Position numbers and translations under genes: made by a program. Shown here piece after piece: positions 1,235 to 57,317 of a DNA stretch of 64,000 bases. Under the pieces are notes generated by a model. It searched no databases. It worked only from the letters and a program-made list of their open reading frames with translations, and was not told the DNA's origin. The first letter of the stretch is position 1. Every line of letters starts with the position of its first letter. This DNA is from Candidatus Falkowbacteria bacterium RIFOXYC2_FULL_36_12 (lineage in GTDB: Bacteria > Patescibacteriota > Patescibacteriia > UBA11705), in NCBI GenBank assembly GCA_001778235.1, contig MFGJ01000007.1, positions 264,331 to 328,330 on the forward strand, given 5' to 3'.

Positions 1235-1237
1235 ATA

Positions 1238-1330: not shown

Positions 1331-1408
1331 GTATTGCTCGGGCTGACTAAATTCCCCCGACTCTGAAGGTCGAGGGAATTTTATATTAAGAAATTCAGTT
1401 ATAAATTT

Positions 1409-1561
1409 TTATTCCTCACTTACAGTGAGCATTTGATTGAACTCTTGGCGGTCATTCCATTCGGCTTTTTTCCCTTTATTCCAACGATTTACCGGACTTA
1501 GGTAGCCGACTACTCTAGAATAAATTTCACATTTCTGTCGTTCTAGTTTTTTTGATGTCAT
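1409..1561 (-). CDS. stand-alone glycyl-radical domain of class III RNR (NrdD C-terminal module) as a 50-aa micro-ORF
   Basis: The hand translation is MTSKKLERQKCEIYSRVVGYLSPVNRWNKGKKAEWNDRQEFNQMLTVSEE. RVVGY plus N-GK--E---R matches the NrdD glycyl-radical motif (RVCGYLG...NAGKQEE..R). A strong SD (GGAGGGAGG) lies 8 nt upstream of the ATG. The ORF sits between nrdD and nrdG and is not in the ORF track because it is under 60 aa. Confidence 0.6.
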   Translation of the reverse strand: MTSKKLERQKCEIYSRVVGYLSPVNRWNKGKKAEWNDRQEFNQMLTVSEE

Positions 1562-1687
1562 AATATTACGACCTCCCTCCAAGAATAACCTCTTGTTATA
1601 AATTTTTGGGATTTTTATTTTTATTTATTAGTACCTATATTTTATAACTTTTTTTACATTATGTTAAACCAATATTTATCCACAAAA

Positions 1688-3751: not shown

Positions 3752-3836
3752 AGGGAAAGATATTAGTTAATAGTTGAGAGTTGTGTGTTGAAAGTTGAAA
3801 GATTATAGATTAGAGAATGGGGATGCGAAAATGGAG

Positions 3837-4349
3837 CTAATTGTTTTTGTTGATTTTAGCCAACTCTGATTCAAACTCTTCAGCATCTTTGAAAGATTTA
3901 TAAACTGAAGCAAAACGGATATAAGCGACCTGATCGACTCTTTTCAATTGCTCCATGGCAATCTCACCAATTCTTTGGCTGGAAATTTCAGAGTTGTTTT
4001 TGTTTTTTTTAACTTCAATTTGAATTTCTCTTTCAATATTATTAATCAGTTTTTTTATTTCATTGTCCATGATTGATCTTTTCTCAAGAGAACGGCAAAT
4101 ACCTTTTTCTAATTTAGCTCTAGAATATGCTTCTCTTTGTCCGCTTCTTTTTCTAACCATGAGATCAAGCAACTCAACTGCTTCATAAGTTGAAAAACGA
4201 AAACCGCACTTGCAACATTCACGACGACGACGAATAGCTAGATCATCTGAAGCAGAACGAGAATCAAGTACCTTTGTCTCTGGATTGTAACAAACTGGAC
4301 ACTTCATGGGATTAACTATATTTAGTATATTCAATAACAATTTTACCAC
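3837..4349 (-). CDS. nrdR: transcriptional repressor NrdR
   Basis: N-terminal Zn ribbon MKCPVC...CCKCG followed by an ATP-cone. It lies immediately upstream of nrdD. Confidence 0.9.
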   Translation of the reverse strand: MVKLLLNILNIVNPMKCPVCYNPETKVLDSRSASDDLAIRRRRECCKCGFRFSTYEAVELLDLMVRKRSGQREAYSRAKLEKGICRSLEKRSIMDNEIKKLINNIEREIQIEVKKNKNNSEISSQRIGEIAMEQLKRVDQVAYIRFASVYKSFKDAEEFESELAKINKNN

Positions 4350-14100: not shown

Positions 14101-17100
14101 TATATTGATTCAAATATAGATATTAATTTCCTGTGGGCCGGATTGTTGGCATCATAACTAACTGAAGAATTCAAATTTATGGCTTTGGTTGGATTTGAAA
14201 ATTCATCCCAACGCCAATTATAATCATAGGGATTTAAACGCTGACCAGCTGCGCTACAAATGTCTGGGGCTCCATAGGATGAAGCACTATAAACGATTTC
14301 ATCGCCTGCTCGCACGGAGGTATATTGACCTGGATTTACATCCACTCGATCAGGGCGACAATAAGCCTCTCCATCACGAACTTTGAAAACAAAACTATAG
14401 GCATCAAAAGCTGTAATCTGGTCAGTTGATTCAGTCTGGGTAACACAGCTTGAACAGCCTGAAGGAAAACTACAAATACAATCTGGATCACCGGCAGTAC
14501 AGGTGCTTCGTTTGGAGATACTGCATTCAGTCTGACAAATCTGGCGTTCAGATGGACAGCTATAATTCGGGATACTGGTAATCGGAGAACAAGTACAAGC
14601 TGAAATATTACCAGTACAAACTTGAGCTGGATTTTCTGCACAATGAGCGACTTTTATACAATTTCCTTTGACTGGATCAGGACTGAAACATTGTTCAGTT
14701 GGCATTTTTTCAAAAGTACCAACTTCCAAACAATTACATCCAACCGAAGAAGTGGTACAAGCTAAACCGATTGAGCCATCGGCCAATTGACAAGCTTTTT
14801 GTGCTTGGCAAGTACAAGCAGGAGCATCAGCGGAACAGAACTTTGTAGTATCTTGAGTACAGACTTTTGGTTCAATACAAGTGCAATTTAAAGAATCTTG
14901 GGTACATGTCTGACTAATATTTTCCTTGCAATATGACGCGCAAACAGGAGAGTCACAGGTCTTTGGGTCAGAACAAGAACAAGCAGTACTTATAATATCA
15001 TCGGTCGTGGTATCTAAATATTGATTACAAGTAGACAGAGCCTGACTACCGGTAAAAATCACTCTATCAACCTTCGAACAATTGGTTGCTTCGCATTGTT
15101 CAGATAAACTAAGTGTCGGGTAAGTTTCGAGTACTCCATTGCCACAACAAGCACCAAATTCAGAGTTATCACAATCCGGGAAACCTACTAAACGACAATC
15201 ATTTGAACAAACTGGGTTGTTGCCGAGTGAACAAACACAACCATCTGCACCAAAATCACATGAATTACCAGCTGTATTTTTACAAATTGCTTCGCATTGT
15301 TCTCCAGCATCTGCCTCAAGTACACCATTGCCACAAGTGCCGATTTCAGCTTGAGTATTGAAATTTAAACCAGTTAAATTCTTATTGCTAATGCTCAAAA
15401 TATTATCTTTTATAACCAAACGATAGTAAACTGATGGTTCAAGTGCAGTATTAGGGGAAACGGTTAAACGGTTACAGACATTAGTGCCAGCAATCGTTGT
15501 TTCTCCGGTTGTACTGTCACAAAGTATTTCAGGCGAAGCAGAATTATTTGACAGAAGATTGTCCTGACCAACTACAGAAAGACAGTTTTGATCATTACAA
15601 CGATATAAACTTATATTTGTATTGTTATTAAATAAAGACTCTTTTTTTATAAAAGTATTAAATTCAGCACCAAGTTCAGCGTTGCGACAAGCCTGATCAC
15701 AATTTGGCCAGAAATCAATTACCTTTGGGTCAAGAAGCTGAACTGATAAATTGGCTGAATCTGAAACTGTGTTACTGGAAAGGACAGCAGAAGCGGTGAT
15801 ATCAACTGGGTCATTGGCTGGGGTTTCAGGGTTTGTAACTCCAGACAATAAACCGAATAATGCTTCGTCACCATTTAATCCAGCAGAAGAAAGTCTCTCA
15901 ATAAGTCCCAGATATTTTGACTCTATTGACCAACTCCAATCGTATAATGAAACATTGATTATAGAACAATTCTGACCTTGACCATTAACAACATATTTTT
16001 GCGTATCCGCAATTGAATCAAGAACTCCATCTGAAGGATTTACCACAACAGAATTAATAGAACAGTCTTGTGATCCAGTATGAAAACGCCAAACATAATC
16101 ATTGCTCATCTGCTGAACCTCTCCATTTAGAGGAGAACTGCTAAGACCGGCTGGCACTTTTACCTGATACCAAAAGTCAGCACCAAGAGTTCCATAATTT
16201 TTTAGAGAAACTTCAGTGATTTCTTCGCCTTCAAAATTACTATTTGATAATTCATAAATATCTGGTTCACCTTCAACAACTCCTCGGACACTAAAACTGT
16301 AGGTGGAAGATTCACAACGATCAGCTTCGCAGGTATCAAGATTGCATTGGACTCCTGGTAAAATACATTTTCTAACCTCAATTTGATTACCCTCTTCGAG
16401 AAACGAACTTGGAGCCATTTCCATATTAAAAGAAAAAGCAATAACAGAATTTGGACAAGCACTGCCACTGTTTTTGGTTGGTGAAGGAGATTCATTGTAT
16501 TCTCCAGCTGAACAAGTTCTTTCAATAATTTTCGGCACTCGAGGAATTCTACCAGTGCTAAAGTACCAACCATATTCACAAGAAGTAACCTCGGCCTGAC
16601 ATTCAGAAGTAAGAGAACAATAATTGTCATTACAACAAACCTGACCAGCACCACAACTTCCAGCACTGCAACGCCCAACAGTAAATTGGGCTGGATTACT
16701 GTCCGCACCATTGCGAGAAACATAAACATTGCCTGTCTTGGCTAGAGCCGGGACAACCACTCCCTCAATTGATGCGTCGGTCCATTCAACATCGGTTAAA
16801 GCAAAACCTTCAACAATTTCATAAACACCATCTGATTTAAAGAATTTTATTTGTGCAGGACTGTTGCCAAAGCCAGTACCGACAATATTTATCTTTGTGC
16901 CGGGAGATCCATTGTTGGGACTAAGCGAACAAATTCCAGGAGAAACAGGTAAATCATTATTGACTACAAAATCTTTGGAATCCACACCTTTGACACCTGA
17001 AACTTGTAACACAAATGAACCATTGTCTAATTGTTCTGGAATTTTTATTTTTAGTTGATTATCTGACCAGAAATTTTGACAAACGCTGTCAGCTAAAAAG

Positions 17101-19127: not shown

Positions 19128-21163
19128 AATTCACCTTCTTGGACATTTATTCCTTGTTCAACTTCACCACAACAGGCCTGCCCCTTATTCATTGGACCAC
19201 AACCTGGGCCAGAACATGGATTAAAACAATTACCACTCATATCTTGAATACCAGACAATATTTTTGGATAAATAATTGGAACATCAAGATTATCTTTTGC
19301 TTCAGGAAAAGCACCATGATTTATTACTGCCACTTTATCATTGGACAGACAAAAGATACTACCATCGGCAGAAACTTGCTTTGGGCAATATAAACTACCC
19401 ATAAACCAACTATTCCAATCATCAGAAACAATAATTAAATTATCATTGGTAACTGTTGATGGATCCAATGATTTTGAAAAGGTGGCGCTGACCAATGAAT
19501 TTGGTTCAACTCCGCTAGATTTATCAGCTCCATTTTCTGGAGTAACGCTAACAATGGTTGGAGCGACTAAATCAAAAGTATTGGAAGTTGCAAAATTCCA
19601 AGAAAAATTGTCATTATCTCCACTAGTTGATCCATTTGCTTTGCCTAATCGGCCATCTGTATCCAGAGCATTTAAAGCTGCGTCAACAATACCTCCGGCT
19701 GGATACAGCGCAACGGTTGGACCATTGCCAAGGAGATTTGATACTGGAACAGATTTTACCAGGCCTGAAATGGTGGCGTTTGCAGGAAAACAGGTAACTA
19801 CCTCGCCACAAGAGTTGTGCAAAGGAGCCTCATCACCACATGAACCTGAAGGCCTATAAACCAAAGAACGATACTGATTGATTCCAGCAGTAATATTACC
19901 ATTTAGAATCTCGCTTGAAGCTTGATCTAGAATTAAAAATTCTGCACCTGTTGAAGTAGCATCAAGAACTAAACTAACAGGTGGAATAACTGCTTCGCTG
20001 AAATCAACTCTAACTCGGGTATTTCTAGGAAAACCAGCGCCACCAGCATTACTGATTGCAATTGGCTGACCAGAGGCATCCAAATCAACAGGATAAACAG
20101 TAGTAATAAAAGGAGGTGTAACATCAATATTGGTAGTTGTAGTAAATTTCCAACGATAAACAGAGTCAGTCCTACCACTGAAAATACTGGTGTTACCATT
20201 AAAACTTTTGACATTTCCCGTAACCAAAGCAAAATATGAAACATCAGAGAATGGTGAACCTAGATGCGAATCAGCACTATTACCATATGGATTAAAGACT
20301 AATGTTTTGAAATCAGGTGTAAGACTAACAATACCATCGCTAATAAACAAAGAATCGTTTGGCTCATTACCTGTCCAATTGTTACAAATATTAGGCTGGC
20401 TACGATTGGCGTCACTATAATCTGCCGGAGCGCTTGAACCAGCTGGATAAAGGGTATCGCAGGCGCGATAAATCCCAAGAGATGAAATATCTAAATCACC
20501 CTGACAAACACAATTTTGTCCTGGCGCGATGGATGAACAAGCAGCTTGGGTTTCAATATCAATACAACTCATGGAATCATTAGCGATAATACTCTCTGGA
20601 TCAATTGGTTGTTTGAAAGTTACCATGATAACAGTATTGCGAGGTACACTAGCGTTATTGGCAGGATAATGATCTTGGATAACACCACCCAATCCCCCGC
20701 TACCTAGACCCGGTGGATTATAGCCATTTGCACCATAAGATCCGGGTGTACCAGTAGCTTGAGCAAGAGCATTAATAATAAATGAAACAATCGCAAAAGC
20801 TGATGCAATAATCGCAAGACCAATAAAAGCATTGATCAAAATCTGTTTTGCTTTACTAACTTTGGTTGGGTCACCGCCAGAAGTCATGTAAAGAAATCCT
20901 GCATATAAAACCAAAACCAAAGCAATGGTTCCAAGTAAACCCAAGAAAACACGAATAACTCTGGCAACAATAATTCTTGGGTCTACATTGCCCAAACCTG
21001 TTGCCTCACCAACAGCATCGGTGCCTTCAACAATACCAGCTTGACCGGCATGAACAGGAGAAATCAGCAAAAAAAATCCAGCCAGAGCAGAAGCAATGAC
21101 AAGCATTAAAATAACTGTTGTTCCTTTTTTCTTATAATGAGAAAAACTTAAAGATGTTATCAT
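19115..21163 (-). CDS. 682-aa Cys-rich surface protein, paralogous pilin-like N-terminal anchor
   Basis: The N-terminus ARVIRVFLGLLGTIALVLVLYAGFLYMTSGGDPTKVSKAKQILINAFIGLAIIASAFAIVSFIINAL is nearly identical in pattern to the giant protein. The C-terminus is Cys-rich. The gene overlaps the downstream giant gene by 13 nt, which suggests an operon. Confidence 0.75.
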   Translation of the reverse strand: MITSLSFSHYKKKGTTVILMLVIASALAGFFLLISPVHAGQAGIVEGTDAVGEATGLGNVDPRIIVARVIRVFLGLLGTIALVLVLYAGFLYMTSGGDPTKVSKAKQILINAFIGLAIIASAFAIVSFIINALAQATGTPGSYGANGYNPPGLGSGGLGGVIQDHYPANNASVPRNTVIMVTFKQPIDPESIIANDSMSCIDIETQAACSSIAPGQNCVCQGDLDISSLGIYRACDTLYPAGSSAPADYSDANRSQPNICNNWTGNEPNDSLFISDGIVSLTPDFKTLVFNPYGNSADSHLGSPFSDVSYFALVTGNVKSFNGNTSIFSGRTDSVYRWKFTTTTNIDVTPPFITTVYPVDLDASGQPIAISNAGGAGFPRNTRVRVDFSEAVIPPVSLVLDATSTGAEFLILDQASSEILNGNITAGINQYRSLVYRPSGSCGDEAPLHNSCGEVVTCFPANATISGLVKSVPVSNLLGNGPTVALYPAGGIVDAALNALDTDGRLGKANGSTSGDNDNFSWNFATSNTFDLVAPTIVSVTPENGADKSSGVEPNSLVSATFSKSLDPSTVTNDNLIIVSDDWNSWFMGSLYCPKQVSADGSIFCLSNDKVAVINHGAFPEAKDNLDVPIIYPKILSGIQDMSGNCFNPCSGPGCGPMNKGQACCGEVEQGINVQEGEFCPY

Positions 21164-33552: not shown

Positions 33553-33861
33553 TAGTGCAGGAGTCAGGATTTTAACCCCGATTAAAGTTGATGATAGGGT
33601 ATCACTGAACCCCTGCAATTATAATTATAACTAATATTGTTGGTTAAACAAAATTTATTGCCCTTTTTTCAAAAAAACAAAAAGTCCTCGGAACAATCCA
33701 AGAACTTTTCGTAGATCGGGATATCCCCTATCATCAACATCAATATAATAGCAAAGTTTAGATGATTTGTCAAGACTTAAAGCTGAAATGGCGTTGCCTT
33801 GATAAAAACTGGATTTTTTGTCATAATACAATATAATATAAATATAAAGATAAAAGAGGAT

Positions 33862-35505
33862 ATGCAAACTAGGTTTGAAAAAATTTTGCAAAATCTTGAA
33901 AAAAACTCCATTAAATCAACACCTGAAATACTTCAGAGAGCTTTTAATTTTTTACAAAGCCAGGAACCTACAATGTCTGAACAGGAGAAACAAGAGTTGA
34001 TACTAAAACCACTGGATGTGGCTCATAACTACTCGCTCCAGGCAATTACGCCTGAACTTGTAGCGGTCTTCATGCTGGCTCCAATTTCAAGAAAAAATCA
34101 GCAAATAGAACAAGAAATCAATAAACTTTTTGATAAGAAATTTACTCAAATACTAAAAGCTTATAATTTGGCTGAAACAAATCTAAAAACAAAGATTGAC
34201 GATCGTTGCTCTTTTGCACATACGCTGAATACCACATTGCAGATTGATCCGCTAAATCTCGGCTATGAAGTTATTTGCGCATCATTATTAAAACATGTAC
34301 CAGAATTTTCCAATATAACCATAGATGAAATCAAAAATGAGTTCGGCGATGATATTGCGGAAATTATTATCAATGTAAATAAGTTAAAATCTCTAAGGTC
34401 ATTGCCTCACAAAGCAAATACAATTGATTTGCAACAGATGTTTCTGTCTTTATCAAAAGATATTAGAGTCATATTGATAAAAATGTGCTCATTGATTGAT
34501 ATGTTAATAAATCTGCATGAGATAAAGGAATCACACAGAACAAGAATAGCAACAGAAGCAATGCATATCTACGCACCAATCGCTGATATCCTAGGTATCT
34601 GGCGGATAAAATGGCAACTGGAAGATTATTCTTTTAAACATTTAAATCCAACTGAATATGATAAAATCAGCCAAAGGTTTAATGTGGATGAGAAAAAAAA
34701 TCGTGAAAAATATATTGAAAAAACAAAACAAGTAATTTTTAAAAAGGCGCAGGAACAAGGGATTGAATGTCAGCTTGATGGAAGATTTAAACACTTCTAT
34801 AGTATTTACAAAAAAATGAATAATTACCAGAAGGACTTTAATGAGGTTTATGATGTATTTGCACTAAGAGTAATTGTCAACAATATTGAAGACTGCTATC
34901 GAATGCTTGGTTTAATCCATCAAACATGGAAACCGAAATCTGAAAGAATAAAAGATTATATTGCTGCACCAAAAAAAAATAGCTATCAGAGTTTACATAC
35001 TACGGTATATGGTATTAATGGTAGGATGACAGAATTTCAAATTAGAACAAAAGAGATGGATGACTCGGCTAAATTTGGAGTTGCCTCCCACTGGCTGTAT
35101 AAACACAATAATCCAAAACTACCAAAATGGGTCAATCACTTTTTATCTTATGCCAGCCAAAATCCACTTGAGCAAATAAATTCAGAATTCCTTTTTGATC
35201 AAATTTTTGTTTATACCCCCAAGAGAGACATTATTTCCTTACCAAAAGGTTCAAATGCAATTGATTTTGCCTACCACATACATACTGATCTTGGCCATAA
35301 ATTTAATGGCGTTAAGATAAATGGACAACTAGCAAATGAATGGCAAAAGTTAAAAAATGAAGATGTGGTTGAGATAATTACCAATCCAAAACAGTCTTTA
35401 CCAAAGGCTGAATGGCTAAAAATGGTTAAGAGTCCACTGGCAATCAAAGTTATAAAAACAGCACTTAATCAAGACGATGAACCAAAAAGACCAGCCTTGA
35501 TGTAA
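33862..35505 (+). CDS. RelA/SpoT homolog, short form: degenerate HD + synthetase + TGS (RelA-like)
   Basis: Synthetase block YDVFALRVIV...YQSLHTTVYG...EFQIRTKEMDDSAKFGVASHWLYK. TGS FVYTPKRDIISLPKGSNAIDFAYHIHTDLGHKF. The HD motif is absent from the N-terminal domain. There is no ACT/RRM C-terminus. The track ORF begins at 33799; RBS agagga precedes the Met at 33862. Confidence 0.7.
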   Translation: MQTRFEKILQNLEKNSIKSTPEILQRAFNFLQSQEPTMSEQEKQELILKPLDVAHNYSLQAITPELVAVFMLAPISRKNQQIEQEINKLFDKKFTQILKAYNLAETNLKTKIDDRCSFAHTLNTTLQIDPLNLGYEVICASLLKHVPEFSNITIDEIKNEFGDDIAEIIINVNKLKSLRSLPHKANTIDLQQMFLSLSKDIRVILIKMCSLIDMLINLHEIKESHRTRIATEAMHIYAPIADILGIWRIKWQLEDYSFKHLNPTEYDKISQRFNVDEKKNREKYIEKTKQVIFKKAQEQGIECQLDGRFKHFYSIYKKMNNYQKDFNEVYDVFALRVIVNNIEDCYRMLGLIHQTWKPKSERIKDYIAAPKKNSYQSLHTTVYGINGRMTEFQIRTKEMDDSAKFGVASHWLYKHNNPKLPKWVNHFLSYASQNPLEQINSEFLFDQIFVYTPKRDIISLPKGSNAIDFAYHIHTDLGHKFNGVKINGQLANEWQKLKNEDVVEIITNPKQSLPKAEWLKMVKSPLAIKVIKTALNQDDEPKRPALM

Positions 35506-35541
35506 TAATTGTGTTATAATCAATATTATTGAGATAAAAAA

Positions 35542-37005
35542 ATGTCTATAAGAAAATTAATCTCAACAATTAAAAAATTTCATCCTGAAGCAGACACTTC
35601 TATGGTCGAGCTGGCTTATGATTTTGCGAAGACTGCTCATGCAGGACAAAAAAGAGCAACAGGAAATGAATATATAAATCATTCACTCGCCACAGCACAA
35701 ATATTGGCAGAACTAAAATTATCCCCAACAATTATTATTGCTGGACTGCTTCATGATGTTCCAGAAGATACAGAATATACACTGGAAGATGTGAAAAAAA
35801 ACTTTGGAGCTGAAGTTGCCAGTATTGTAAAAGGGATTACTAAACTTAGTAATATTAAATATCGTGGCATGGATCGCTATGTTGAGAATCTGCGTAAAAT
35901 GTTTGTGGCCATGGCCGAAGATATCAGAGTCATAATCGTAAAATTTGCTGATAGACTTCACAACTTAAATACTCTTTATGCTCTACCAGCCAACAAACAA
36001 AAAAGAATTGCCATGGAATCTCTGGAAATCTATGTCCCGATTGCAAATAGACTTGGTATTGGAGAACTGCAGTCAAGACTTGAAGACAATGCTTTTAAAT
36101 ATGCCTATCCTGATGAGTTCATGTGGGTTGAGCAATTGATAAAAAAGCAGGTGCCAATAAAAACGAAAACTCTGAACCAGATGAAAACAAAATTATCAAA
36201 TGAACTGAAAAAAGAAAGCATAAATTTTGAGGAAATTTATGGTAGGAATAAACATTATTATAGTTTGTTCCGAAAACTTTTGAGATTTAATCGTGATATC
36301 AGTAAAATTTATGACATAGTGGCAATCAGAGTAATTGTGAAAAATATTGCTGATTGTTATGCTGTACTTGGAGTGGTCCATAATCTATGGAAACCAGTAA
36401 AAGGACGAATAAAAGATTATATTGCCCAGCCAAAACCAAATGGTTATCAGTCTTTGCACACAACTGTTTTCGGTGATAACAAAGAAATTGTTGAATTTCA
36501 AATTCGTACCAAGAAAATGCATGAACAAGCAGAGTTTGGTATTGCTGCACACTGGGAATATAAAGAAGGTAAAAATGGACCAGAAAAAATAAAAAAAGAA
36601 GTTGCCTGGGTGCAAGATCTAGCAAAATGGTTAAAAGAAGTTCGAGACAATGAAAGTTTTCTCGAAGGAGCAAAAATTGATGTTTTCCAAAATAGAATTT
36701 TTGTTTTTACTCCCCAGGGTGAAGTCATTGACCTACCAGATGGAGCAACTCCAGTAGATTTTGCTTATCATATTCATACAGACCTTGGCAACAAATGTGA
36801 ACGAGCATATATTAATGACCAACAAATAAGTCTGGATACGAGATTGAAAAACGGCGATGTGGTCCAGATTGTAACGGCTAAAAAACGCAAGGGGCCAAAC
36901 CCTGAATGGCTAAAATTTGTTAAGACTAGAACTGCGCGCCAACATATTATGAATTTTCGCAATAAAAGTTGGAGAAATATTATTTCAAAATTTTCAAAAA
37001 AATAA
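35542..37005 (+). CDS. RelA/SpoT homolog, short form: intact HD hydrolase + synthetase + TGS (SpoT-like)
   Basis: HD: HSLATAQILAEL...GLLHDVPEDT. Synthetase: YDIVAIRVIV...YQSLHTTVFG...EFQIRTKKMHEQAEFGIAAHWEYKEG. TGS: FVFTPQGEVIDLPDGATPVDFAYHIHTDLGNKC. 487 aa with no ACT domain. Confidence 0.75.
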   Translation: MSIRKLISTIKKFHPEADTSMVELAYDFAKTAHAGQKRATGNEYINHSLATAQILAELKLSPTIIIAGLLHDVPEDTEYTLEDVKKNFGAEVASIVKGITKLSNIKYRGMDRYVENLRKMFVAMAEDIRVIIVKFADRLHNLNTLYALPANKQKRIAMESLEIYVPIANRLGIGELQSRLEDNAFKYAYPDEFMWVEQLIKKQVPIKTKTLNQMKTKLSNELKKESINFEEIYGRNKHYYSLFRKLLRFNRDISKIYDIVAIRVIVKNIADCYAVLGVVHNLWKPVKGRIKDYIAQPKPNGYQSLHTTVFGDNKEIVEFQIRTKKMHEQAEFGIAAHWEYKEGKNGPEKIKKEVAWVQDLAKWLKEVRDNESFLEGAKIDVFQNRIFVFTPQGEVIDLPDGATPVDFAYHIHTDLGNKCERAYINDQQISLDTRLKNGDVVQIVTAKKRKGPNPEWLKFVKTRTARQHIMNFRNKSWRNIISKFSKK

Positions 37006-37077: not shown

Positions 37078-37881
37078 ATGTGTAATCTTATGAAAAAAGT
37101 TTTTTTGGCATTGATAGTATTGTTGTCTTTAATTATTGCGCCGAGTCAAGTACTAGCAGTCAGTGCAGGAAACGCCTGTACCGGCGGACCTGGGAATGGA
37201 AATTGTGATGCAGGTTTATTTTGTGGAGTACTGAATGAATGTGAACCAAAAATAATTACCGGCGGAAGCTTAAATTGTTTTGAAAATTTTGAATGCCAAT
37301 CAAATAACTGCAATCCGGAGTCTAATGAATGTGAAGCCGCTACAACACCAACTCCAACTGATGTCTGTACTGCTGACACGGATTGTCCAAGTAATAAATA
37401 TTGTCTGATCGCTGGAGACGGGACAACATCCTGCGTAAATAAATTAGCCAATGGTGCGACTGGTTGCTTTCGAAATAGTAATTGTGTGTCAAACAATTGC
37501 GATCTTGCAACTGCAACTTGCCAAGCGGCAACAGGTGCTCCCACTCCACCCGTTGGATCAACTACACCGCTGGGGGCAGAGACAACGCCAGCGATCGAAG
37601 CAGAAACTGAAACTGAAACAACTAGACTGGTGAATCCGCTTGGGACTGATTCTCTACAAGTGATTATTGGTCGAGTAATTAGATTTTTCATTGGAATTGC
37701 TGGGACTACTGCTTTGGCGGTTTTGGTCTATGGTGGTATTATTTTATTAATCTCTGGCGGTCGAGATACTTATATAAAAAAAGGTAGAAATGCAGTAATT
37801 TACTCGGTTTTGGGCTTAGCAATTATTTTCTCAAGCTATATTTTAGTTAAATTTATTATTGCGGCCTTATCACAAGCATAA
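37078..37881 (+). CDS. secreted Cys-rich protein with a C-terminal pilin-like (VirB2/TrbC-type) hairpin
   Basis: A signal peptide, then 4 Cys-rich modules (C..C......C, e.g. CFENFECQSNNCNPESNECE). The C-terminus IGRVIRFFIGIAGTTALAVLVYGGIILLISGGRDTYIKKGRNAVIYSVLGLAIIFSSYILVKFIIAAL matches the N-terminal module of the 2669-aa and 682-aa proteins. Confidence 0.6.
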   Translation: MCNLMKKVFLALIVLLSLIIAPSQVLAVSAGNACTGGPGNGNCDAGLFCGVLNECEPKIITGGSLNCFENFECQSNNCNPESNECEAATTPTPTDVCTADTDCPSNKYCLIAGDGTTSCVNKLANGATGCFRNSNCVSNNCDLATATCQAATGAPTPPVGSTTPLGAETTPAIEAETETETTRLVNPLGTDSLQVIIGRVIRFFIGIAGTTALAVLVYGGIILLISGGRDTYIKKGRNAVIYSVLGLAIIFSSYILVKFIIAALSQA

Positions 37882-42722: not shown

Positions 42723-42809
42723 GCCGAAGTGGCGGAACTGGTAGACGCGCTGGACTCAAAATCCAGTGGTGGCAACATCGTGAGAGTTCGAGTCTCTCCT
42801 TCGGCACCA
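42723..42809 (+). tRNA. tRNA-Leu (anticodon CAA), CCA encoded
   Basis: Hand fold: acceptor GCCGAAG/CTTCGGC. Anticodon stem CTGGA/TCCAG with loop CTCAAAA. Long variable arm. T-arm GAGAG-TTCGAGT-CTCTC. Discriminator A followed by CCA. Confidence 0.85.
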
Positions 42810-42895
42810 TACAAAATTAAAAGATTATAATAAACTATAGACTTAGCTTGATGTTTTTCTAAATTTAAGCTATAATATACAACAATACTAATTAG

Positions 42896-42970
42896 CGCGG
42901 GGTAGAGCAGTGGCAGCTCGCTAGGCCCATAACCTAGAGGTCGGGGGTTCGAATCCCCCCCCCGCAACCA
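42896..42970 (+). tRNA. tRNA-Met (anticodon CAU), initiator-like with a C1xA72 mismatch, CCA encoded
   Basis: Hand fold: acceptor CGCGGGG/CCCCGCA with unpaired C1-A72. D-stem GAGC/GCTC. Anticodon stem CTAGG/CCTAG with loop CCCATAA (C at position 33). T-arm GGGGG-TTCGAAT-CCCCC. Confidence 0.75.
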
Positions 42971-43106
42971 AGGTGTATTCATTACAGTGTTGGTAGAAAT
43001 TCTTGGCAAGTCAAGTTAAACCGTGGATTGTCAAGAAATTTTACGAACAAACATTGCTTCACTTGTAATTGGGCTTGTTCCGAAGTGAACCATAGCCACT
43101 ACTTCG

Positions 43107-43183
43107 GGGCAGGGTAGCTCAGCTGGTTAGAGCGAGGGAATCATAACCCCTAGGTCGGCGGTTCAATTCCGCCCCCTGTCACC
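43107..43183 (+). tRNA. tRNA with CAU anticodon (elongator Met or Ile2/lysidine), CCA encoded
   Basis: Acceptor GGCAGGG/CCCTGTC with a G-U at 2:71. D-stem GCTC/GAGC. Anticodon loop ATCATAA. T-arm GGCGG-TTCAATT-CCGCC. Confidence 0.75.
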
Positions 43184-51191: not shown

Positions 51192-52550
51192 TTACTTTTT
51201 CTTTTCACCTTGTAATTTTGATAATGGTAAATCAATTCGTACTTGATCGCGAGGAAGAAAAGTTGCTTGTTTAATATTATTCAATCCAAGTAGGCTCATA
51301 GTCACTCTTTCAAGTCCCATACCGATTCCGCCGTGAGGTGGCATGCCGTATTTGAATGGTATTAGATAAAATTCAAAATCATCAGGATTCAAACCCCATT
51401 TGGTAATGTTGGCTTTTAATTTTTCATAATTATGAATACGCTGTCCGCCAGTAACCATTTCTTGTCCGCGGAATAGTAAATCAAAACTTTTTGTATAGCC
51501 TTTATCTTCTTCGTCTTCGGAAGTGTACATTGGACGCTTGGCAACTGGATAATGAGTGACAAAAAGAAAATCTGAATTCCAAGTTTTCTTGGTATACTCC
51601 CCTATTAATTTCTCCTGATGAGGTTCAAAATCTGGTTCGCCAAGACAATCTTCACCATATTCATCATGAAGAATCTGAAGAGCTTCATTTAACTTCATAT
51701 GTGGAAATTGTTCTGGCATTTCCGGCAAGGTAGCCTGCAAAGTTTTCAATTCTGCAGTATTATTTTCAGCCACTTTGCCAATCATGGCACGAACTGCTCC
51801 TTCGATCATTTGCATGATGTCATGATGGTCATGGATAAAGCCCATTTCAAAATCAAGTGAGGTATATTCGTTAATATGGCGATTGGTATCATGTTCTTCG
51901 GCTCGATAAACCTGCCCAACAGTAAAAGCCCGTTCAAAAACTCCGACTGCCATTTGTTTGTAAAATTGTGGACTCTGGGCGAGATAAGCTTTATAGCCAA
52001 AATAATCCAAAGTAAAAAAGTTTGCTCCACCCTCGGTTGCTCCGGCGACTAATTTGGAACATTGGAACTCGGTAAAATCTTTTTGTTTCATATAGGCACG
52101 AAAACCATCAAGTAATGATTCCTGAACTTTGAAAATAGCTTTTTCATCTTCCCGACGAAGATTTAATGGCAAATAATCAAGTAATGTGTCAGTTTTCAAT
52201 TCTGCATCATTTAAATCATACGGCAAAGTTTCAGCTTCAGCTAAAATTTCAAAACTCTTTGCCAAGACTTCGACTGTACCTGTTGGCAAGTCAGTATTGG
52301 TTTGTTTGGCACCTCGATTATTAATGATTCCTTTGATTGACAAGACAAATTCTGGACGGAGTTTGGTCAGTAACTCTTTGGAAGTTTCATCAAGCTCTGA
52401 TGGCACCATTACAACCTGAAGCACAGCGCTACGATCACGCAAATCAATAAAAACGATCTTGCCCATGTTGCGCCGAGCAGCTACCCAGCCTTCAACAAGA
52501 ACTTCCTCCCCGATTTTTCCCACTGTTTGTAAATTTAGTGTTCGTTCCAT
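51192..52550 (-). CDS. aspS: aspartyl-tRNA synthetase, archaeal/eukaryal-type short form (likely non-discriminating)
   Basis: Class IIb: OB-fold N-terminus, motif 2 YRAEEHDTNRHINEYTSLDFEMGF, motif 3 GGIGMGLERV. The C-terminus ATFLPRD is AspRS-like. Confidence 0.65.
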   Translation of the reverse strand: MERTLNLQTVGKIGEEVLVEGWVAARRNMGKIVFIDLRDRSAVLQVVMVPSELDETSKELLTKLRPEFVLSIKGIINNRGAKQTNTDLPTGTVEVLAKSFEILAEAETLPYDLNDAELKTDTLLDYLPLNLRREDEKAIFKVQESLLDGFRAYMKQKDFTEFQCSKLVAGATEGGANFFTLDYFGYKAYLAQSPQFYKQMAVGVFERAFTVGQVYRAEEHDTNRHINEYTSLDFEMGFIHDHHDIMQMIEGAVRAMIGKVAENNTAELKTLQATLPEMPEQFPHMKLNEALQILHDEYGEDCLGEPDFEPHQEKLIGEYTKKTWNSDFLFVTHYPVAKRPMYTSEDEEDKGYTKSFDLLFRGQEMVTGGQRIHNYEKLKANITKWGLNPDDFEFYLIPFKYGMPPHGGIGMGLERVTMSLLGLNNIKQATFLPRDQVRIDLPLSKLQGEKKK

Positions 52551-52559
52551 ATTTTTAAG

Positions 52560-52684
52560 TCAACATCTTCACTTGTCATCCTGAACTTGTTTCAGGATAT
52601 AATTGAATAGCTGATTTATTTTTCTAAATACCCTGAAATATCTGCCTGTCGGCAGACAGGAATTCAGGGTGACAAAATTATTAT
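52560..52684. repeat. palindromic repeats of the accctgaa/ttcagggtgaca family
   Basis: atcctgaac-ttg-tttcaggat and accctgaaatatctgcctgtcggcagacaggaattcagggtgacaa. Confidence 0.75.
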
Positions 52685-53980
52685 TTAAGGATTTAAACGA
52701 TTTATCATTCTTGGAAATGGAATAGTTTCACGGACATGGTGAATCCCTGCCATCCAACGGGTCAATCGTTCAATCCCCATACCAAATCCGCAATGTGGTA
52801 CGCTACCATATTTTCGTAAATCCAAATACCATTCAAAATCTTCCATTGGTAATTTTGCCTCTACCATTCTTTGTTTCAAAATTTCATAATCGTCCTCTCT
52901 TTGTGACCCACCAACAATCTCACCAAAACCTCGAGCTGCGAGAATGTCGGCATTCAAAACCAGCTCTGGATTTTCAGGATGACGCTTCATGTAGAATGGT
53001 TTGATATCTTTTGGCCAGTTCTTTACAATCACAGGCACCGCAGAATCATTGGTCAATAATTCTTCATCATCCGCTCCAAGATCATCACCGTATTTAATGT
53101 CTGAACCGCGTTTTTGAAGCTCTTCAATGGCCGCGCCGTATTCGTAATGAATAAAAGGCTGATCAACTATGGCTTGGAGTTCTGTGGTATCGCGATCCAA
53201 CATCTTCAATTCTTCCAGACCGTACTCCAAAACATATTTCGCTAAATATTTCACCGCTGCTTCTTGAATTTTCAAACTGTCTTCATGCTCGCAAAAAGCG
53301 ATTTCAGGATTGAGTGACCAGAATTCTGTTAAATGCTTTCTGGTTTTTGATTTTTCCGCTCGAAAATTGGGACAGAGATCATAAACCCTGCCGAATGACA
53401 TGACCAAGGCTTCCAAATACAGCTGTCCGTTTTGAGTTAGATAAGCTTTGCGGTCAAAATATTCCACTTCAAACAAATCCGAAGTCCCCTCACAGCTGGT
53501 TGGCGTAAATGTTGGAGTATCCAATTCCTGGTATCCATTTTGATTAAAAAATTCCTGTAGCCCCATTTTGACCAAATGTCTAATTCTAAGCACTGCCCAC
53601 TGACTCTGGGATCTGAGCCACAAATGTCTGTTGTTGAGCAGAAAATCTGGGCCGTGTTCTTTTTTTCCGATTGGATATTCTTCAGCCAACTGGATGATTT
53701 TAATTGTTTTGACTTGTAATTCAAAAACTTCAGGATTTTTTGGATGCTGTGATACCGTGCTACTAATCTCAACTGAAGATTCAATGGTCAATCTTTCAAT
53801 TTCAAACCAAACATTGTCATCAACCTCATCTTTGCTGGCAACGGCCTGGCAAAAACCAGAGCCATCTCGTAGCTGAAGAAAGGCAATTGAACCTGATGAG
53901 CGGAAATTATAAACCCAACCTTTAAGTGTGATCTCCTGATCTTTGTAATTTTTTAAATCTTTAATATAACAGTTTTGCAT
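52685..53980 (-). CDS. asnS: asparaginyl-tRNA synthetase
   Basis: FRAEKSKTRKHLTEFWSLNPEIAF (AsnRS-specific TEFW..EPE.AF). The C-terminus VRETIPFPR is AsnRS-like. Confidence 0.7.
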   Translation of the reverse strand: MQNCYIKDLKNYKDQEITLKGWVYNFRSSGSIAFLQLRDGSGFCQAVASKDEVDDNVWFEIERLTIESSVEISSTVSQHPKNPEVFELQVKTIKIIQLAEEYPIGKKEHGPDFLLNNRHLWLRSQSQWAVLRIRHLVKMGLQEFFNQNGYQELDTPTFTPTSCEGTSDLFEVEYFDRKAYLTQNGQLYLEALVMSFGRVYDLCPNFRAEKSKTRKHLTEFWSLNPEIAFCEHEDSLKIQEAAVKYLAKYVLEYGLEELKMLDRDTTELQAIVDQPFIHYEYGAAIEELQKRGSDIKYGDDLGADDEELLTNDSAVPVIVKNWPKDIKPFYMKRHPENPELVLNADILAARGFGEIVGGSQREDDYEILKQRMVEAKLPMEDFEWYLDLRKYGSVPHCGFGMGIERLTRWMAGIHHVRETIPFPRMINRLNP

Positions 53981-54119
53981 AAAATTCTAGTTAATTTACA
54001 TACAAAATTATAACTTAATTTGTTTGAATTGTAAAATATTTCTTGACTTTTAAGGTAAATAATTTGATAATATATTATTAATTGCTTTTATTTTGACTTT
54101 TTGATTTAGATAGCATAAA

Positions 54120-55052
54120 TTGAAGAATAAGTTCCTTGACCCAGCGCGGAGGAAGGCCATGAACGGAGAAAAATTTACAACTTTAAAAGTAAGAAAAGTT
54201 AGACCTGATGCAAAAATTCCGATTAGAGCTAGTGATGGAGCGATTGGATATGATGTTTATGCTTCAATTGTCTTTCATTCATATGACAAAAAACAAACAG
54301 CTGAACTTCCTATTGTCATTAACCCAGGGGAAAAAGCTCTTATTGGTATTGGTGTAGCCATGGCAATTCCCTGGCCGTTTCAGGCTGAGGTCAGACCTCG
54401 AAGCGGTATTGCAACTAAATTCAAAGTTCAACTACTTAATTCTCCGGGGACAATTGATCCTGATTTTCGCGGTGAAGCTGGCTGTTTGCTACACAATGTT
54501 GGAGACACGCCATTTACTGTGGAGAAAGATATGCGGATTGCACAACTTATTTTTACTAGAGTAGAAATTCCAGAGATTGTAGAAGTTGACGAATTACTTG
54601 ACACGAAAAGATCTGCTGGCGGATTTGGACATACTGGTTTAATAGGTGAAGGTCTTGGGACGGAACAATATGATAATGAAATTGAAGCAATTGACAGAAC
54701 TTATTTGGAAATTGCCCAAGCAATTGGGAAAAGAACACCTGCCCAACAAGGTTGCGTGATTGTACAAGACGATACGATTATTTCCCAAGGTTATTGTCTC
54801 GTCAACCAAGAAGATGAAGTGCTTATTTCAGCAGAAATGGATGCAGTGTTTCGTTCAGCAAAACTGGGTCATTCGACTAAAAATGCTACCATGTATTTAG
54901 CAACTAAATTGGTTATGGATGTCGACTCAATTATTAAGGCCGGAATCACAACTGTAGTTGTATTTAGCTTTGTGAACACTGGGGAATGGTGTGATCAACT
55001 ACAGAGTAATAATGTTCAGGTAAGATTTGTTAAAAATCTTAAATCAACTTAA
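54120..55052 (+). CDS. dut: dUTPase fused to a dCMP-deaminase-like domain lacking zinc ligands
   Basis: N-terminal half has dUTPase motifs IGYDVYAS, GTIDPDFRGE, RIAQLIF and RSAGGFGHTG. The C-terminal half (GCVIVQDDTIISQGYC...SAEMDAVFRSAKLGHSTKNATMYLATKLVMDVDSIIKAGITTVV) aligns with ComEB-type dCMP deaminase, but HAE is SAE and PCxxC is KLVMD. The start may be the Met at 54159. Confidence 0.7.
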   Translation: MKNKFLDPARRKAMNGEKFTTLKVRKVRPDAKIPIRASDGAIGYDVYASIVFHSYDKKQTAELPIVINPGEKALIGIGVAMAIPWPFQAEVRPRSGIATKFKVQLLNSPGTIDPDFRGEAGCLLHNVGDTPFTVEKDMRIAQLIFTRVEIPEIVEVDELLDTKRSAGGFGHTGLIGEGLGTEQYDNEIEAIDRTYLEIAQAIGKRTPAQQGCVIVQDDTIISQGYCLVNQEDEVLISAEMDAVFRSAKLGHSTKNATMYLATKLVMDVDSIIKAGITTVVVFSFVNTGEWCDQLQSNNVQVRFVKNLKST

Positions 55053-55109
55053 AAATAACGCTAAACAACGTTATTTTTTATTATCCACAACTGACAATAA
55101 AGACAGCGT

Positions 55110-55517
55110 GTGTTAAGATATTGTTGTATGGAAAATAGTCAAACTACAATTGAAGATGTTCTAAATGCTGTAAATACATCCGCGGAGCTAATGCAACAGC
55201 AAATAAATGAAATAAAGAGCACGATGGCAACCAAGGATGATATTGCAAACATGGCAACCAAGGATGATATTGCAAACATGGCGACCAAGGATGATATTGC
55301 AAACATGGCGACCAAAGATGATTTGGCTAATTTGGTGACCAAAGATTATCTTGATGAAAAACTGGCTGATCTGCGAGGTGATTTGGTTGTACTTACCCGC
55401 AAAGAAGACACGAAGCTAAAACGGCTAGTCAATATTATGACTAATAAAAATATGCTTTCCTCTGAAGAAAAAGCAGAAATTTTTGCTTTGGAACCTTTTC
55501 CAGAAACACGGTTGTAA
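55110..55517 (+). CDS. small coiled-coil protein with 4 tandem 8-aa repeats
   Basis: (MATKDDIAN)x4 encoded by perfect 24-bp DNA repeats (55242-55337). The start is probably MENSQT at 55128. Confidence 0.4.
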   Translation: MLRYCCMENSQTTIEDVLNAVNTSAELMQQQINEIKSTMATKDDIANMATKDDIANMATKDDIANMATKDDLANLVTKDYLDEKLADLRGDLVVLTRKEDTKLKRLVNIMTNKNMLSSEEKAEIFALEPFPETRL

Positions 55518-55640: not shown

Positions 55641-57317
55641 TTAATAATTTCTTTTTGCTTTTAATTTATCAAGCGCCTGACAATATCTCATATATGGTTC
55701 AGTAAACCCACTATCGAGTTCCTCGATCGTAATATCAAAATCCTTTAACAATAAATCAACTGATTCCCGATAATGAGTTAAATTCTTGATATAGACTGTA
55801 AAATTGGAGATGCTCCATACATTTGCGGTAGCTTGATTTATTTGCTTTATTAATCTATCCAAAAAATCAAGGTCGTCTTCTAATTTTAACATAAATGACT
55901 CTACTACTTCTGTTTTACTGACCAAGGCTTTTAAAATTTTTCTTGCATTCTCTTCTTGAAGTGTATATTCTCTCAAACAATTACCAATAAATTCAAACTT
56001 GTCTTGTTTTTCAATGTTGCCAGAATACTTTTTTATATCATCAAGAAGTTCTTTTTGTTCAGATGGTGTCTCGGCTAAATCTATATGACCAATCTCTCCG
56101 TCAGCTTCAAACCTACCAAAACCGTATACTTCCCCCTCATCACGAACGAATCTATTGCCATCACCAATAAAATAACCAAAAATAATACCTGATCTTTTCC
56201 CCCCGATTGTATATGGATACTTTTTATCAACAGGTACAATCAATTTTTGTCTAAGTTCAAAGGAGGGAACTGTTTCACCTGTTTTCAATTTGTAAACTGG
56301 ATATGCTATTGCTTTTCGTAGATCTTTCTTTTTTTGTTCTGCAATCTTTTTAACATCATATCGATTGGCGATAGCACGATAAACAGCCAACTGTGCCTTT
56401 TTACGATTATTGCTGGCTCTAATATACATCAAGTCACGCATAGCTTGCGTATCAAGATCACCTAATTCCTTTTCCTCCTTTTCTTGTTGATAAACTGTTT
56501 CTATTGGTGTAAATTTACCAAGCTCATAATCAAACCAAGAACGACTAACTAAATCTGCAATATCTCGAGCAGAGAAACCAACTGCATACAAACCACTTAT
56601 TGCTTCGAGAGCAGAGAGGACTTCGTCGGCGGAAGATAATTTCATAATTCCACCATAATTTCTCTGCAGAGTTTCTGCGATTGCACGCAAACTATACTTA
56701 CTTCCAACATGGAAATAACCTTCAACATAGGCCTGTGCTTCAGTCAACAATGCTGATGGGAACCTATTTTTTTTATAATGTAAAAAATGTATTAGTTCAT
56801 GTATTAAAGTATAAACGGAGTCTGGCAAAGCTCCATTCCTAATAATATAAACTAACTGTTTACGCAATTCTGGCATTGGAGAACCGATATGGACCTCTTT
56901 CTGTTGTGGTTCATACTGACCTCTAAATTCGATTTTGGGGCCATGGTGCTGAAGATTTAGACCAAACACTTGTTCTGAATCAAAAATAATTTTACCTCCA
57001 ACATTTGGTTGTTGAGTCAAATCTCGCTTCAAAATTTCTATACCAAGCGAATTTAAAGTTTGAAAAAAAGTAGAATTTGCTTCCAGTTGAGTCTTTACCT
57101 CGTCGGCTATTTCGTCTAAAACGGTTTCAGGCATTATTTCTTTGTCAACCAAAATATTATTATAGAGAATAAAATTATATTTTTTTAGTTCCCGATCCAG
57201 TTTTTTTCTCTCGGCTAATAACTCGGTATATCGCTTACCTAAAATAGTTTCCCATTTTTTGGTTGGACTTTTCTCTGTTTCAGGCATTATTTCATTGACA
57301 AAATGTTTTTCCGACAT
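55641..57317 (-). CDS. putative HExxH zinc metallopeptidase (ImmA/IrrE-like motif), large hypothetical protein
   Basis: 558 aa. LIHELIHFLH is HExxHxxH. No signal peptide. No other recognisable domains. Confidence 0.45.
   Translation of the reverse strand: MSEKHFVNEIMPETEKSPTKKWETILGKRYTELLAERKKLDRELKKYNFILYNNILVDKEIMPETVLDEIADEVKTQLEANSTFFQTLNSLGIEILKRDLTQQPNVGGKIIFDSEQVFGLNLQHHGPKIEFRGQYEPQQKEVHIGSPMPELRKQLVYIIRNGALPDSVYTLIHELIHFLHYKKNRFPSALLTEAQAYVEGYFHVGSKYSLRAIAETLQRNYGGIMKLSSADEVLSALEAISGLYAVGFSARDIADLVSRSWFDYELGKFTPIETVYQQEKEEKELGDLDTQAMRDLMYIRASNNRKKAQLAVYRAIANRYDVKKIAEQKKKDLRKAIAYPVYKLKTGETVPSFELRQKLIVPVDKKYPYTIGGKRSGIIFGYFIGDGNRFVRDEGEVYGFGRFEADGEIGHIDLAETPSEQKELLDDIKKYSGNIEKQDKFEFIGNCLREYTLQEENARKILKALVSKTEVVESFMLKLEDDLDFLDRLIKQINQATANVWSISNFTVYIKNLTHYRESVDLLLKDFDITIEELDSGFTEPYMRYCQALDKLKAKRNY

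Follow-up and report, generated by a model that had tools for sequence, protein, structure and literature searches.

The protein studied here is encoded in a window of 64,000 nucleotides from Candidatus Falkowbacteria bacterium RIFOXYC2_FULL_36_12 (contig MFGJ01000007.1, positions 264,331 to 328,330; all positions below count from the first letter of this window). A single unbroken open reading frame (ORF) at 54120..55052 on the + strand, 310 aa long when counted from its TTG codon (the numbering used throughout for residues of the window protein), joins a dUTPase (Dut) to a domain that is descended from dCMP deaminase and has lost all its zinc ligands. The window protein probably works as a dUTPase only and keeps its pseudo-deaminase domain as a structural element. 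Thymidylate synthesis receives its dUMP from two enzymes, dUTPase and dCMP deaminase, and the homologues retrieved indicate that a fusion of both is widespread in Patescibacteria, yet uncharacterised. As for annotation, the window protein would be a dUTPase with a degenerate deaminase-like domain and does not belong among the dCMP deaminases when the metabolism of these organisms is reconstructed.

The dUTPase half and the degenerate deaminase half

The dUTPase domain spans residues 31-173 (54210..54638, +), as supported by PF00692, NF001862, TIGR00576, PDB alignment and Foldseek. PF00692 matches with 76 bits (cut-off 22, E = 2.9e-21), NF001862 with 133.3 bits (cut-off 103) and TIGR00576 with 132.5 bits (cut-off 102.55). 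The five dUTPase motifs that an earlier note, made from the letters of the window and their translations, had read in the N-terminal half are all present on the + strand. Motif I (AIGYDVYA, residues 41-48, 54240..54263) contains G43 and D45, which are invariant in alignments A1 and A2. Motif II (RPRSGIA, residues 92-98, 54393..54413) contains the invariant R94, S95 and G96 and aligns to the dUTPases of the PDB. Motif III (GTIDPDFRGE, residues 110-119, 54447..54476), motif IV (RIAQL, residues 139-143, 54534..54548) and motif V (RSAGGFGHTG, residues 164-173, 54609..54638), the last of which is P-loop-like and forms the flexible C-terminal arm, are supported by A1, A2 and the PDB dUTPases; motif III includes the catalytic Asp and has a Phe in place of the usual Tyr across the whole fused family. 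The top PDB match of this half is Aquifex aeolicus Dut (E = 2.4e-28), with motifs II-V in register. More generally, the monofunctional homotrimeric dUTPases of A. aeolicus (8y1q), Brucella (3mbq) and M. tuberculosis (1six) have the same five motifs and match the window protein with E from 2e-28 to 1e-23 and 33-40% identity in structural alignment, and the same chemistry is predicted for it. The full-length AlphaFold model has a predicted local distance difference test score (pLDDT) of 88, residues 169-177 falling below 50, and Foldseek relates it to dUTPase structures at TMt 0.73-0.85, its top 50 matches being all dUTPases. Moreover, of 49 Dut positions with a conservation of at least 97% among 104 canonical fusions (see below), the window protein keeps 48. 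These data point to a complete trimeric-type dUTPase that is predicted to be active. Membership of the dCTP deaminases or of DCD-DUT was considered and rejected, TIGR02274 reaching 31 bits against a cut-off of 92.8; the PF22769 match (38.6 bits, residues 62-147) overlaps the dUTPase match and reflects the shared Dut fold.

The solved dUTPases 8y1q and 3mbq stop two residues past motif V, whereas the chain of the window protein runs on, through the linker LIGEGLG (residues 174-180, 54639..54659, +), into helix 1 of a second domain of 125 aa (residues 181-305, 54660..55034, +). This domain was identified as a degenerate dCMP-deaminase fold from PF00383, AlphaFold and Foldseek. The profile scan suggested in the earlier note confirmed that a Dut and a deaminase-derived domain are fused in one chain, since PF00692 and PF00383 both exceed their cut-offs within one ORF, although the deaminase match is marginal: PF00383 (dCMP_cyt_deam_1) scores 28 bits over residues 196-279 of the full protein, and 30.4 bits when the domain is searched alone (cut-off 25). 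The same note had likened about 150 C-terminal residues to ComEB. The Pfam family and the dCMP-deaminase fold agree with that proposal, but the domain is closer to 125 aa and the ComEB equivalog TIGR02571 gives only 28.8-31.8 bits against a cut-off of 219.45. The C-domain was modelled separately (residues 178-310), the top 50 Foldseek matches of the full-length model having returned dUTPases alone. The resulting AlphaFold model has a pLDDT of 92.9 and the topology a1-b1-b2-a2-b3-a3-b4-a4-b5, and its best PDB matches in Foldseek are the dCMP deaminases 2hvw, 5c2o, 1vq2 and 4p9e (TM 0.70-0.75, E from 3e-9 to 4.5e-8). Model and matches together place the domain in the cytidine/dCMP deaminase fold, helix-4 division. 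Because the best structural matches are dCMP deaminases, the objection that this half might belong to a different fold fails, and the model indicates a folded domain descended from dCMP deaminase. The likeness to the top structural matches (S. mutans 2hvw/5c2o, phage T4 1vq2, cyanophage S-TIM5 4p9e and human DCTD 2w4l; TM 0.62-0.75) lies in the common a/b fold with its helix 4 and extends to an echo in helix 2 and strand 3, where the window protein reads SAEMDAV...ATMYLAT and the T4 enzyme HAELNAI...ATMYVTL. Nevertheless, the identity to these enzymes is 18-22%, and the catalytic zinc site, the second zinc site, the Asn of G(Y/W)N and the signature Tyr are all missing from the window C-domain.

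The columns of the zinc ligands were inspected against 104 canonical homologues, and none of the ligands is kept in the window protein. As previously read, the catalytic H-A-E is replaced by S237-A238-E239 (54828..54836, +), so that the zinc-binding His is gone and the proton-shuttle Glu is retained. Similarly, K263-L264-V265-M266-D267 (54906..54920, +) stands for E-P-C-x-x-C and both zinc-binding Cys are gone. The earlier equation of PCxxC with KLVMD was right as to the absence of Cys but not as to the register, the PCxxC columns being L264-V265-M266-D267 and that of the second Cys a gap. Several other losses had not been noticed before. G224-Y225-C226 (54789..54797, +) is a remnant of G(Y/W)N from which the substrate/allosteric Asn has disappeared. 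Of the second-zinc insert (loop 3) that follows it, about 10 residues are left (LVNQEDEVLI), and the Cys found there in 100% of the canonical fusions are deleted or replaced; the insert of about 25 aa that the canonical fusions have after helix 1 is deleted too. Finally, N286 (54975..54977, +) occupies a position between strand 4 and helix 4 which is Tyr in 99% of the canonical fusions, and a Tyr at this place is a signature of dCMP deaminases (PMC3239186, Table 1). In total, the window C-domain keeps 10 of 34 family-conserved deaminase positions. All characterised enzymes of the deaminase fold depend on a zinc whose ligands are two Cys and, in addition, a His or a Cys (PMC4683357, PMC3239186), and the substrate Asn is essential in them (PMC4683357, PMC12088426). 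Since the His, both Cys ligands and the substrate Asn are gone, the alignments indicate that the domain cannot be a canonical zinc-dependent deaminase, in agreement with the earlier note, and dUTP hydrolysis (dUTP -> dUMP + PPi) is strongly predicted to be the sole activity of the window protein.

Some positions have nonetheless been spared in the window protein and in every other fused member examined, live or dead: G180, D192, Y259 and R302. T181 is also invariant, so that the linker enters helix 1 through an invariant Gly-Thr. R302 (55023..55025, +) looks specific to the fused family, the matching position (reached via one canonical member) being Phe in T4 dCMP deaminase and Glu in the S-TIM5 enzyme; its pairing with the equally invariant D192 is a candidate idea.

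The fusion family and the repeated decay of its deaminase half

The search for homologues gave 1668 matches. The best 120 are almost all proteins with PF00692 and PF00383 from metagenome-assembled genomes (MAGs) of Patescibacteria, about 105 of them being 335-350 aa long with HAE and PCxxC kept, and their database name is 'dUTP diphosphatase' only. From the GTDB species-representative genomes, 28 fused loci were recovered, 22 of them intact (G[FY]N, H[AS]E, PCxxC) and 6 degenerate, from genomes labelled Falkowbacteria, Uhrbacteria, Berkelbacteria, Wolfebacteria, Parcubacteria, Paceibacterota and others. None of the papers searched describes a fusion of Dut and dCMP deaminase and none of the PDB entries searched contains one. 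The architecture is therefore widespread in Patescibacteria and mostly ligand-intact, while the statement that characterised examples are lacking holds for these papers and PDB entries. A natural fusion of this kind, common in Patescibacteria, makes a ready biochemical target.

The canonical fusions (for example P0002, P0015 and P0028) have the domain order and the linker of the window protein and are 40-47% identical to it over 92% of the query (45-47% for many members; E down to 6e-76). Their Dut half is essentially identical to that of the window protein at conserved positions, and the invariant G180, D192, Y259 and R302 are common to both. Unlike the window protein, they are 335-350 aa long and possess G[FY]N, HAE, PCxxC, the Cys-rich second-zinc insert and the insert of about 25 aa after helix 1. 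On this comparison, the window protein is an orthologue-level member of the Patescibacteria fusion family and a degenerate variant within it. In the parent family, the genes of both enzymes that provide dUMP for thymidylate synthesis have been fused. A comparable case is DCD-DUT, in which cytosine-nucleotide deamination and dUTP hydrolysis are combined in one protein to give dUMP for thymidylate synthesis (PMC5519681), and the canonical fusions may be its two-domain analogue. Yet, DCD-DUT performs both reactions in a single dUTPase-fold domain and without zinc, and the window protein has no deaminase activity left to combine.

The genomic context of the family varies. Split forms are found on a Nealsonbacteria contig, where the genes of a stand-alone dCMP deaminase, of a Dut of 161 aa and of a ThyA-like protein lie side by side, and on a Staskawiczbacteria contig, where the gene of a dCMP deaminase comes after that of a Dut of 167 aa. 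The gene of the canonical fusion P0028 (L085, 5001-11038) overlaps that of ThyA and is followed by a stand-alone ComEB-type dCMP deaminase, Tmk, SHMT and FolD. As this cluster has two deaminases, it is possible that the fused one prefers another substrate, for instance dCTP; in that case, the attached dUTPase would hydrolyse its product, dUTP. A thymidylate cluster surrounds P0028 and P0116 but neither P0081 nor P0037, and is thus not universal. Neither the window nor the Falkowbacteria orthologous locus has the cluster (ThyA/ThyX, Tmk and a stand-alone deaminase), and the fusion gene of the window stands alone between aminoacyl-tRNA synthetase genes and unrelated genes. Two further arrangements were observed in the course of this survey. 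The Berkelbacteria chromosome OY969116 (L086, 5001-10828) encodes the intact fusion P0081 and a separate plain dUTPase of 141 aa about 4 kb downstream. In L025 (6622-8085), a 487-aa ORF lies directly after a plain Dut; its C-terminal half is thymidylate-synthase-like by eye and is preceded by a long N-terminal extension.

In a neighbour-joining tree built from the Dut halves, the window protein clusters with P0006 (PFAP01000011, CG10_big_fil_rev_8_21_14_0_10_39_11) and P0008 (DOZJ01000004, UBA11705), which are both ligand-less Falkowbacteria proteins. In the same tree, P0116 and P0117 (SAE or PVE, no PCxxC) branch next to a group of shortened proteins that have CAE or CAG and PCxxC, and P0093 stands alone. 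This distribution indicates that the deaminase half decayed independently in at least three lineages. The locus of P0008 also has in common with the window a 431-aa class II aminoacyl-tRNA synthetase, a CMAS-type methyltransferase, a pseudouridine synthase, a PolyA_pol-family protein (CCA-adding enzyme or poly(A) polymerase) and L19. Because of the grouping in the Dut tree and of this synteny, the window protein and the Falkowbacteria proteins are orthologues; the fusions in related genomes that the earlier note had proposed to look for thus exist, and the syntenic Falkowbacteria ones are ligand-less too. P0006 and P0008 are 56-62% identical to the window protein in the Dut half and 32-33% in the C-domain. 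In the three-sequence alignment A5, they have the same Ser at the position of the His and an Asp-Ala next in helix 2, but their Glu is lost as well (SCI against SAE in the window protein), their remnant of loop 3 is longer and there is a 4-residue insert before helix 4. The MAFFT alignments disagree on the SCIFD/SCILD of these two proteins, which is aligned to the HAE helix in A5 and to the second-zinc insert in the larger alignment; in both cases, the His and the Glu are missing. Since the orthologues are ligand-less at this level of Dut identity, the loss of the ligands is, on the evidence of the alignments, old in the Falkowbacteria lineage.

Within the family as a whole, the sequences form a graded series made up of intact fusions, shortened CAE + PCxxC forms, ligand-less forms and plain Dut proteins ending just past motif V. 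The shortened clade (P0034, P0046, P0049, P0064 and P0037; L005 and L010) consists of proteins of 281-289 aa with Cys for the catalytic His, from which both inserts and the Asn of GxN are absent and some of which have lost the Glu (CAG, CAV). Their CAE + PCxxC is the ligand set of the tetrameric cytidine deaminases, and these proteins may be decay intermediates or else deaminases of altered specificity. The gene for the degenerate P0116 adjoins one for an intact stand-alone deaminase (HAE, PCxxC and the fused-type insert), which is followed by Tmk and ThyX, and the locus reads as a clear case of deaminase redundancy, which can account for the decay. The fused-type insert of this stand-alone deaminase has the motif CLRD..IP.G...E.CR..HAE; elsewhere on the same contig (L087, 1-8273) are encoded a GyrB with an intein and a ThyX with a LAGLIDADG-containing insertion. 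With the split forms at its start (split, intact, trimmed, ligand-less, plain Dut), the series illustrates how one half of a bifunctional enzyme decays to a pseudoenzyme during genome reduction. A profile of the three dead C-domains (A5) had no match in a set of 5.8 billion proteins. With phmmer, the window C-domain matched 4 of 1.84 billion representatives, namely itself, P0008, P0003 and the ordinary dCMP deaminase P0123, and no larger family of dead domains emerged.

The dead domain nevertheless bears the marks of purifying selection. For the two Falkowbacteria orthologues (L001-L004), the non-synonymous and synonymous divergences of the C-domain (dN 0.47 and dS 1.8) correspond to a ratio (omega) of about 0.25. 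For two short Glu-less forms (L005-L010), whose dS (0.7-1.0) is unsaturated, omega is 0.24 in the C-domain versus 0.046 in Dut. At equal Dut divergence (60-65%), the C-domains of canonical pairs are 51 +/- 5% identical, against 33% for the window protein, whose C-domain is 23-33% identical to all others compared. These values indicate that the constraint on the dead domain is relaxed but present, and continued selection on a dead half suggests some structural role.

The role of the dead domain

The known assemblies of both parent enzymes offer a first indication of what this role could be. dUTPases are trimers whose active sites are built from three subunits and in which the motif-V arm closes over a neighbouring active site, whereas dCMP deaminases are ring hexamers built from trimers, and their assembly is central to their regulation. 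In the window protein, the motif-V arm passes via 7 residues straight into helix 1 of the dead domain. A parallel is provided by human CDADC1, whose N-terminal DCTD-like domain is inactive, is devoid of the allosteric motif and has an architectural role in trimer/hexamer assembly (PMC12088426; PDB 9hfq-9hft). Like the window protein, CDADC1 keeps a catalysis-dead domain derived from dCMP deaminase in one chain with an active nucleotide enzyme. The CDADC1 domain still binds zinc, however (H109, C134, C137), and is inactivated by HAG and a blocking Glu, while the window domain has no metal site; furthermore, the partner of the CDADC1 domain is another deaminase and not a dUTPase, and there is no direct evolutionary link between both proteins. 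A structural role is favored because of these four elements (the hexamers of dCMP deaminases, the architectural domain of CDADC1, the trimers of dUTPases and the motif-V arm that enters the dead domain). By analogy, the dead domain would be a non-catalytic structural module that most likely stabilises or pairs Dut trimers, a proposal held with moderate confidence; it may also hold the motif-V arm or dock partner enzymes. The pseudoenzyme scaffold, which was one of two functions suggested in the earlier note, thereby stays viable and provides the best reading, in so far as the analogy holds.

The nucleotide metabolism encoded in the window may explain why the deaminase could be spared. A class III ribonucleotide reductase cluster (539-4349, -) comprises a NrdG-like radical SAM activase (539-1234), the class III anaerobic ribonucleotide reductase NrdD with its ATP-cone (1688-3751) and NrdR (3837-4349). 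Class III ribonucleotide reductases act on nucleoside triphosphates, and NrdD makes dUTP directly from UTP. The dUTPase alone can then both clear dUTP and supply dUMP, and the deaminase route is in all likelihood dispensable for that reason.

Several points weigh against the retained structural module. The scaffold role is drawn by analogy with the dCMP-deaminase hexamers and CDADC1. The pLDDT of 92.9 may be due in part to the canonical sequences, which prevail in the alignment. The omega values come from other dead lineages, dS being saturated for the window pairs and the one population variant lying outside the coding sequence (CDS). No thymidylate synthase (ThyA/ThyX) or other deaminase is encoded within the 64-kb window. 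Finally, the relatives in L025 and L026 no longer have the domain, their chain stopping only a few residues past motif V; the domain is thus dispensable for dUTPase function.

Several other scenarios may be considered. One of them is that the dead domain is an evolutionary relic without a function of its own, which persists only because no deletion has removed it so far or because the protein would fold less well if it were removed, and which is heading for loss. The genomes of Patescibacteria are known for reductive evolution, and the continuum from intact fusions through trimmed and ligand-less forms to plain Dut, the faster evolution of the C-domain than in canonical pairs and the loss of 24 of the 34 conserved positions would all be congruent with a slow decay. 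Yet, the ORF has stayed intact although the lineage is so deep that its Dut halves have diverged to 56-62% identity, the dead or Glu-less domains have an omega of about 0.25 and not about 1, a good fold is predicted for the domain, the dead state has been kept in at least three separate lineages, and G180, D192, Y259 and R302 are invariant across live and dead forms. A slowly decaying relic is thus a serious rival, albeit an unlikely one. Alternatively, the dead domain could have acquired a new task in the control of the dUTPase, as a module for regulation or assembly. It would fasten the motif-V arm and bring Dut trimers together as a hexamer, or else recruit partners of the thymidylate pathway. 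In a wider view, the intact parent family could be a zinc-dependent two-domain analogue of DCD-DUT that channels dCTP or dCMP and dUTP to dUMP. This more elaborate proposal is doubtful as a whole; if it were true, the activity or the interactions of a dUTPase would be governed by a built-in pseudoenzyme.

The other function suggested in the earlier note was a nucleotide sensor, in which the dead deaminase would bind dCTP, dTTP or dCMP and tune the dUTPase allosterically via the motif-V arm. dCMP deaminases do have an allosteric site for dCTP/dTTP (PMC12088426), motif V runs into helix 1 by a 7-residue linker with the invariant G180 and T181, and Glu239 as well as the Gly-Tyr of G(Y/W)N survive in the window protein. 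The one prediction of this idea that could be checked, conservation of the allosteric motif G(Y/W)N(A/G) (as defined in PMC12088426) and of loop 3 (as defined in PMC4683357, according to which the loop with the second zinc site carries the allosteric control and the Asn is essential), fails. The motif, whose G[FY]N is present in all 22 intact fused loci, has degenerated to GYCL in the window protein and to GYDN and GCEN in its two orthologues, and is absent in the other dead lineages; loop 3 has been deleted together with the second zinc site, and Glu239 is not kept in the orthologues. The residues that persist across the dead forms are mainly Gly and the strand-3 Tyr, in addition to D192 and R302, and match no known ligand-binding motif of dCMP deaminases, which suggests that they are core positions. 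Besides, the equivalent site of CDADC1 is unoccupied and unresponsive (PMC12088426). The dead domain is probably not a nucleotide sensor, a role that now appears quite improbable. Even less can be said for a domain that is still an enzyme, either as a non-canonical deaminase or because it has gained, with Glu239 and further residues, a different activity in catalysis or binding. A folded domain is predicted, and Glu239 is kept in a helix 2 (SAEMDAV) that resembles that of T4 dCMP deaminase, but none of the 3 zinc ligands is present in a fold whose characterised members all need zinc (PMC4683357, PMC3239186), the substrate Asn and the Tyr are gone too, and the three orthologues have no alternative set of conserved residues in common. 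This explanation is accordingly very improbable. It is hardly credible, finally, that the fusion or the loss of its ligands is an artefact due to a sequencing or assembly error, to a frameshift fusing two genes or to a pseudogene. Across the gene, the window and two independent ENA assemblies agree at 100% of 1121 bp, the single base at which a third sample deviates lies outside the CDS, the same protein was deposited from four NCBI Falkowbacteria MAG accessions of the Rifle aquifer and its architecture is that of the orthologues. Restoring the ligands would take changes in at least 3 separate codons and two insertions. Nothing was found in favor of an artefact, the TTG start being probably too far upstream but without effect on the fusion. 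A split gene, a frameshift, a sequencing error and a misassembly are excluded by the assembly identity and the four accessions, so that the doubt raised in the earlier note about resequencing or a frameshift is answered.

The gene and its surroundings

The true start of the fusion gene is almost certainly the ATG at 54159, for three reasons: the GGAGGAAGG upstream of it, the 297-aa form deposited at NCBI and the location of the sole variant upstream of this codon. The CDS would then extend over 54159..55052 (+; 297 aa and the stop codon). The Shine-Dalgarno-like GGAGGAAGG lies at 54148..54156 (+), just 5' of the ATG, as read from the sequence. The in-frame leader that begins with the TTG (54120..54158, +) is probably an untranslated 5' region, the NCBI form beginning at M14 and the homologues near there. 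The variant, G>T at 54144 in another sample, falls inside this leader and is the only one in 6.8 kb. A promoter-like site (TTGACT-17-GATAAT, 54043..54071, +) is located about 88 nt 5' of the ATG and is a consensus match only (10/12); another consensus match, on the opposite strand (54035-54007, -), would be a divergent promoter-like site for the aminoacyl-tRNA synthetase gene. At the other end, an AT-rich 10-bp hairpin read from the sequence (AAAAATAACG / CGTTATTTTT, 55051..55079, +), whose 3' arm enters a T tract, is a possible weak terminator; its stem has only 2 G-C pairs, and the terminator scan did not report it. From this arrangement, the fusion gene looks monocistronic and divergent from two aminoacyl-tRNA synthetase genes.

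These two genes (51192-53980, -) encode adjacent paralogous class IIb aminoacyl-tRNA synthetases of 452 and 431 aa, both with PF01336 and PF00152 (Asp/Asn/Lys type). Immediately 3' of the fusion gene, a small ORF (55110-55517, +) without Pfam match contains four near-perfect tandem copies of MATKDDIAN (27-bp repeats); this ORF and one of 558 aa (55641-57317) are inserted relative to the Falkowbacteria orthologous locus (L083). Farther away, the region 11118-21163 (-) includes a 2669-aa ORF whose sole match is a TIG/IPT domain and, upstream of it with an overlap of 13 bases, the gene of a 682-aa protein with Big_5 and T4SS_pilin domains (19115-21163, -). A further T4SS_pilin protein is encoded at 37078-37881, and the TIG/IPT, Big_5 and T4SS_pilin proteins are probably cell-surface proteins. 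The window also contains tandem RelA/SpoT homologues of 568 and 487 aa (33799-37005, +), each with HD_4, RelA_SpoT and TGS domains, and a cluster of three tRNA genes (42723-43181, +).

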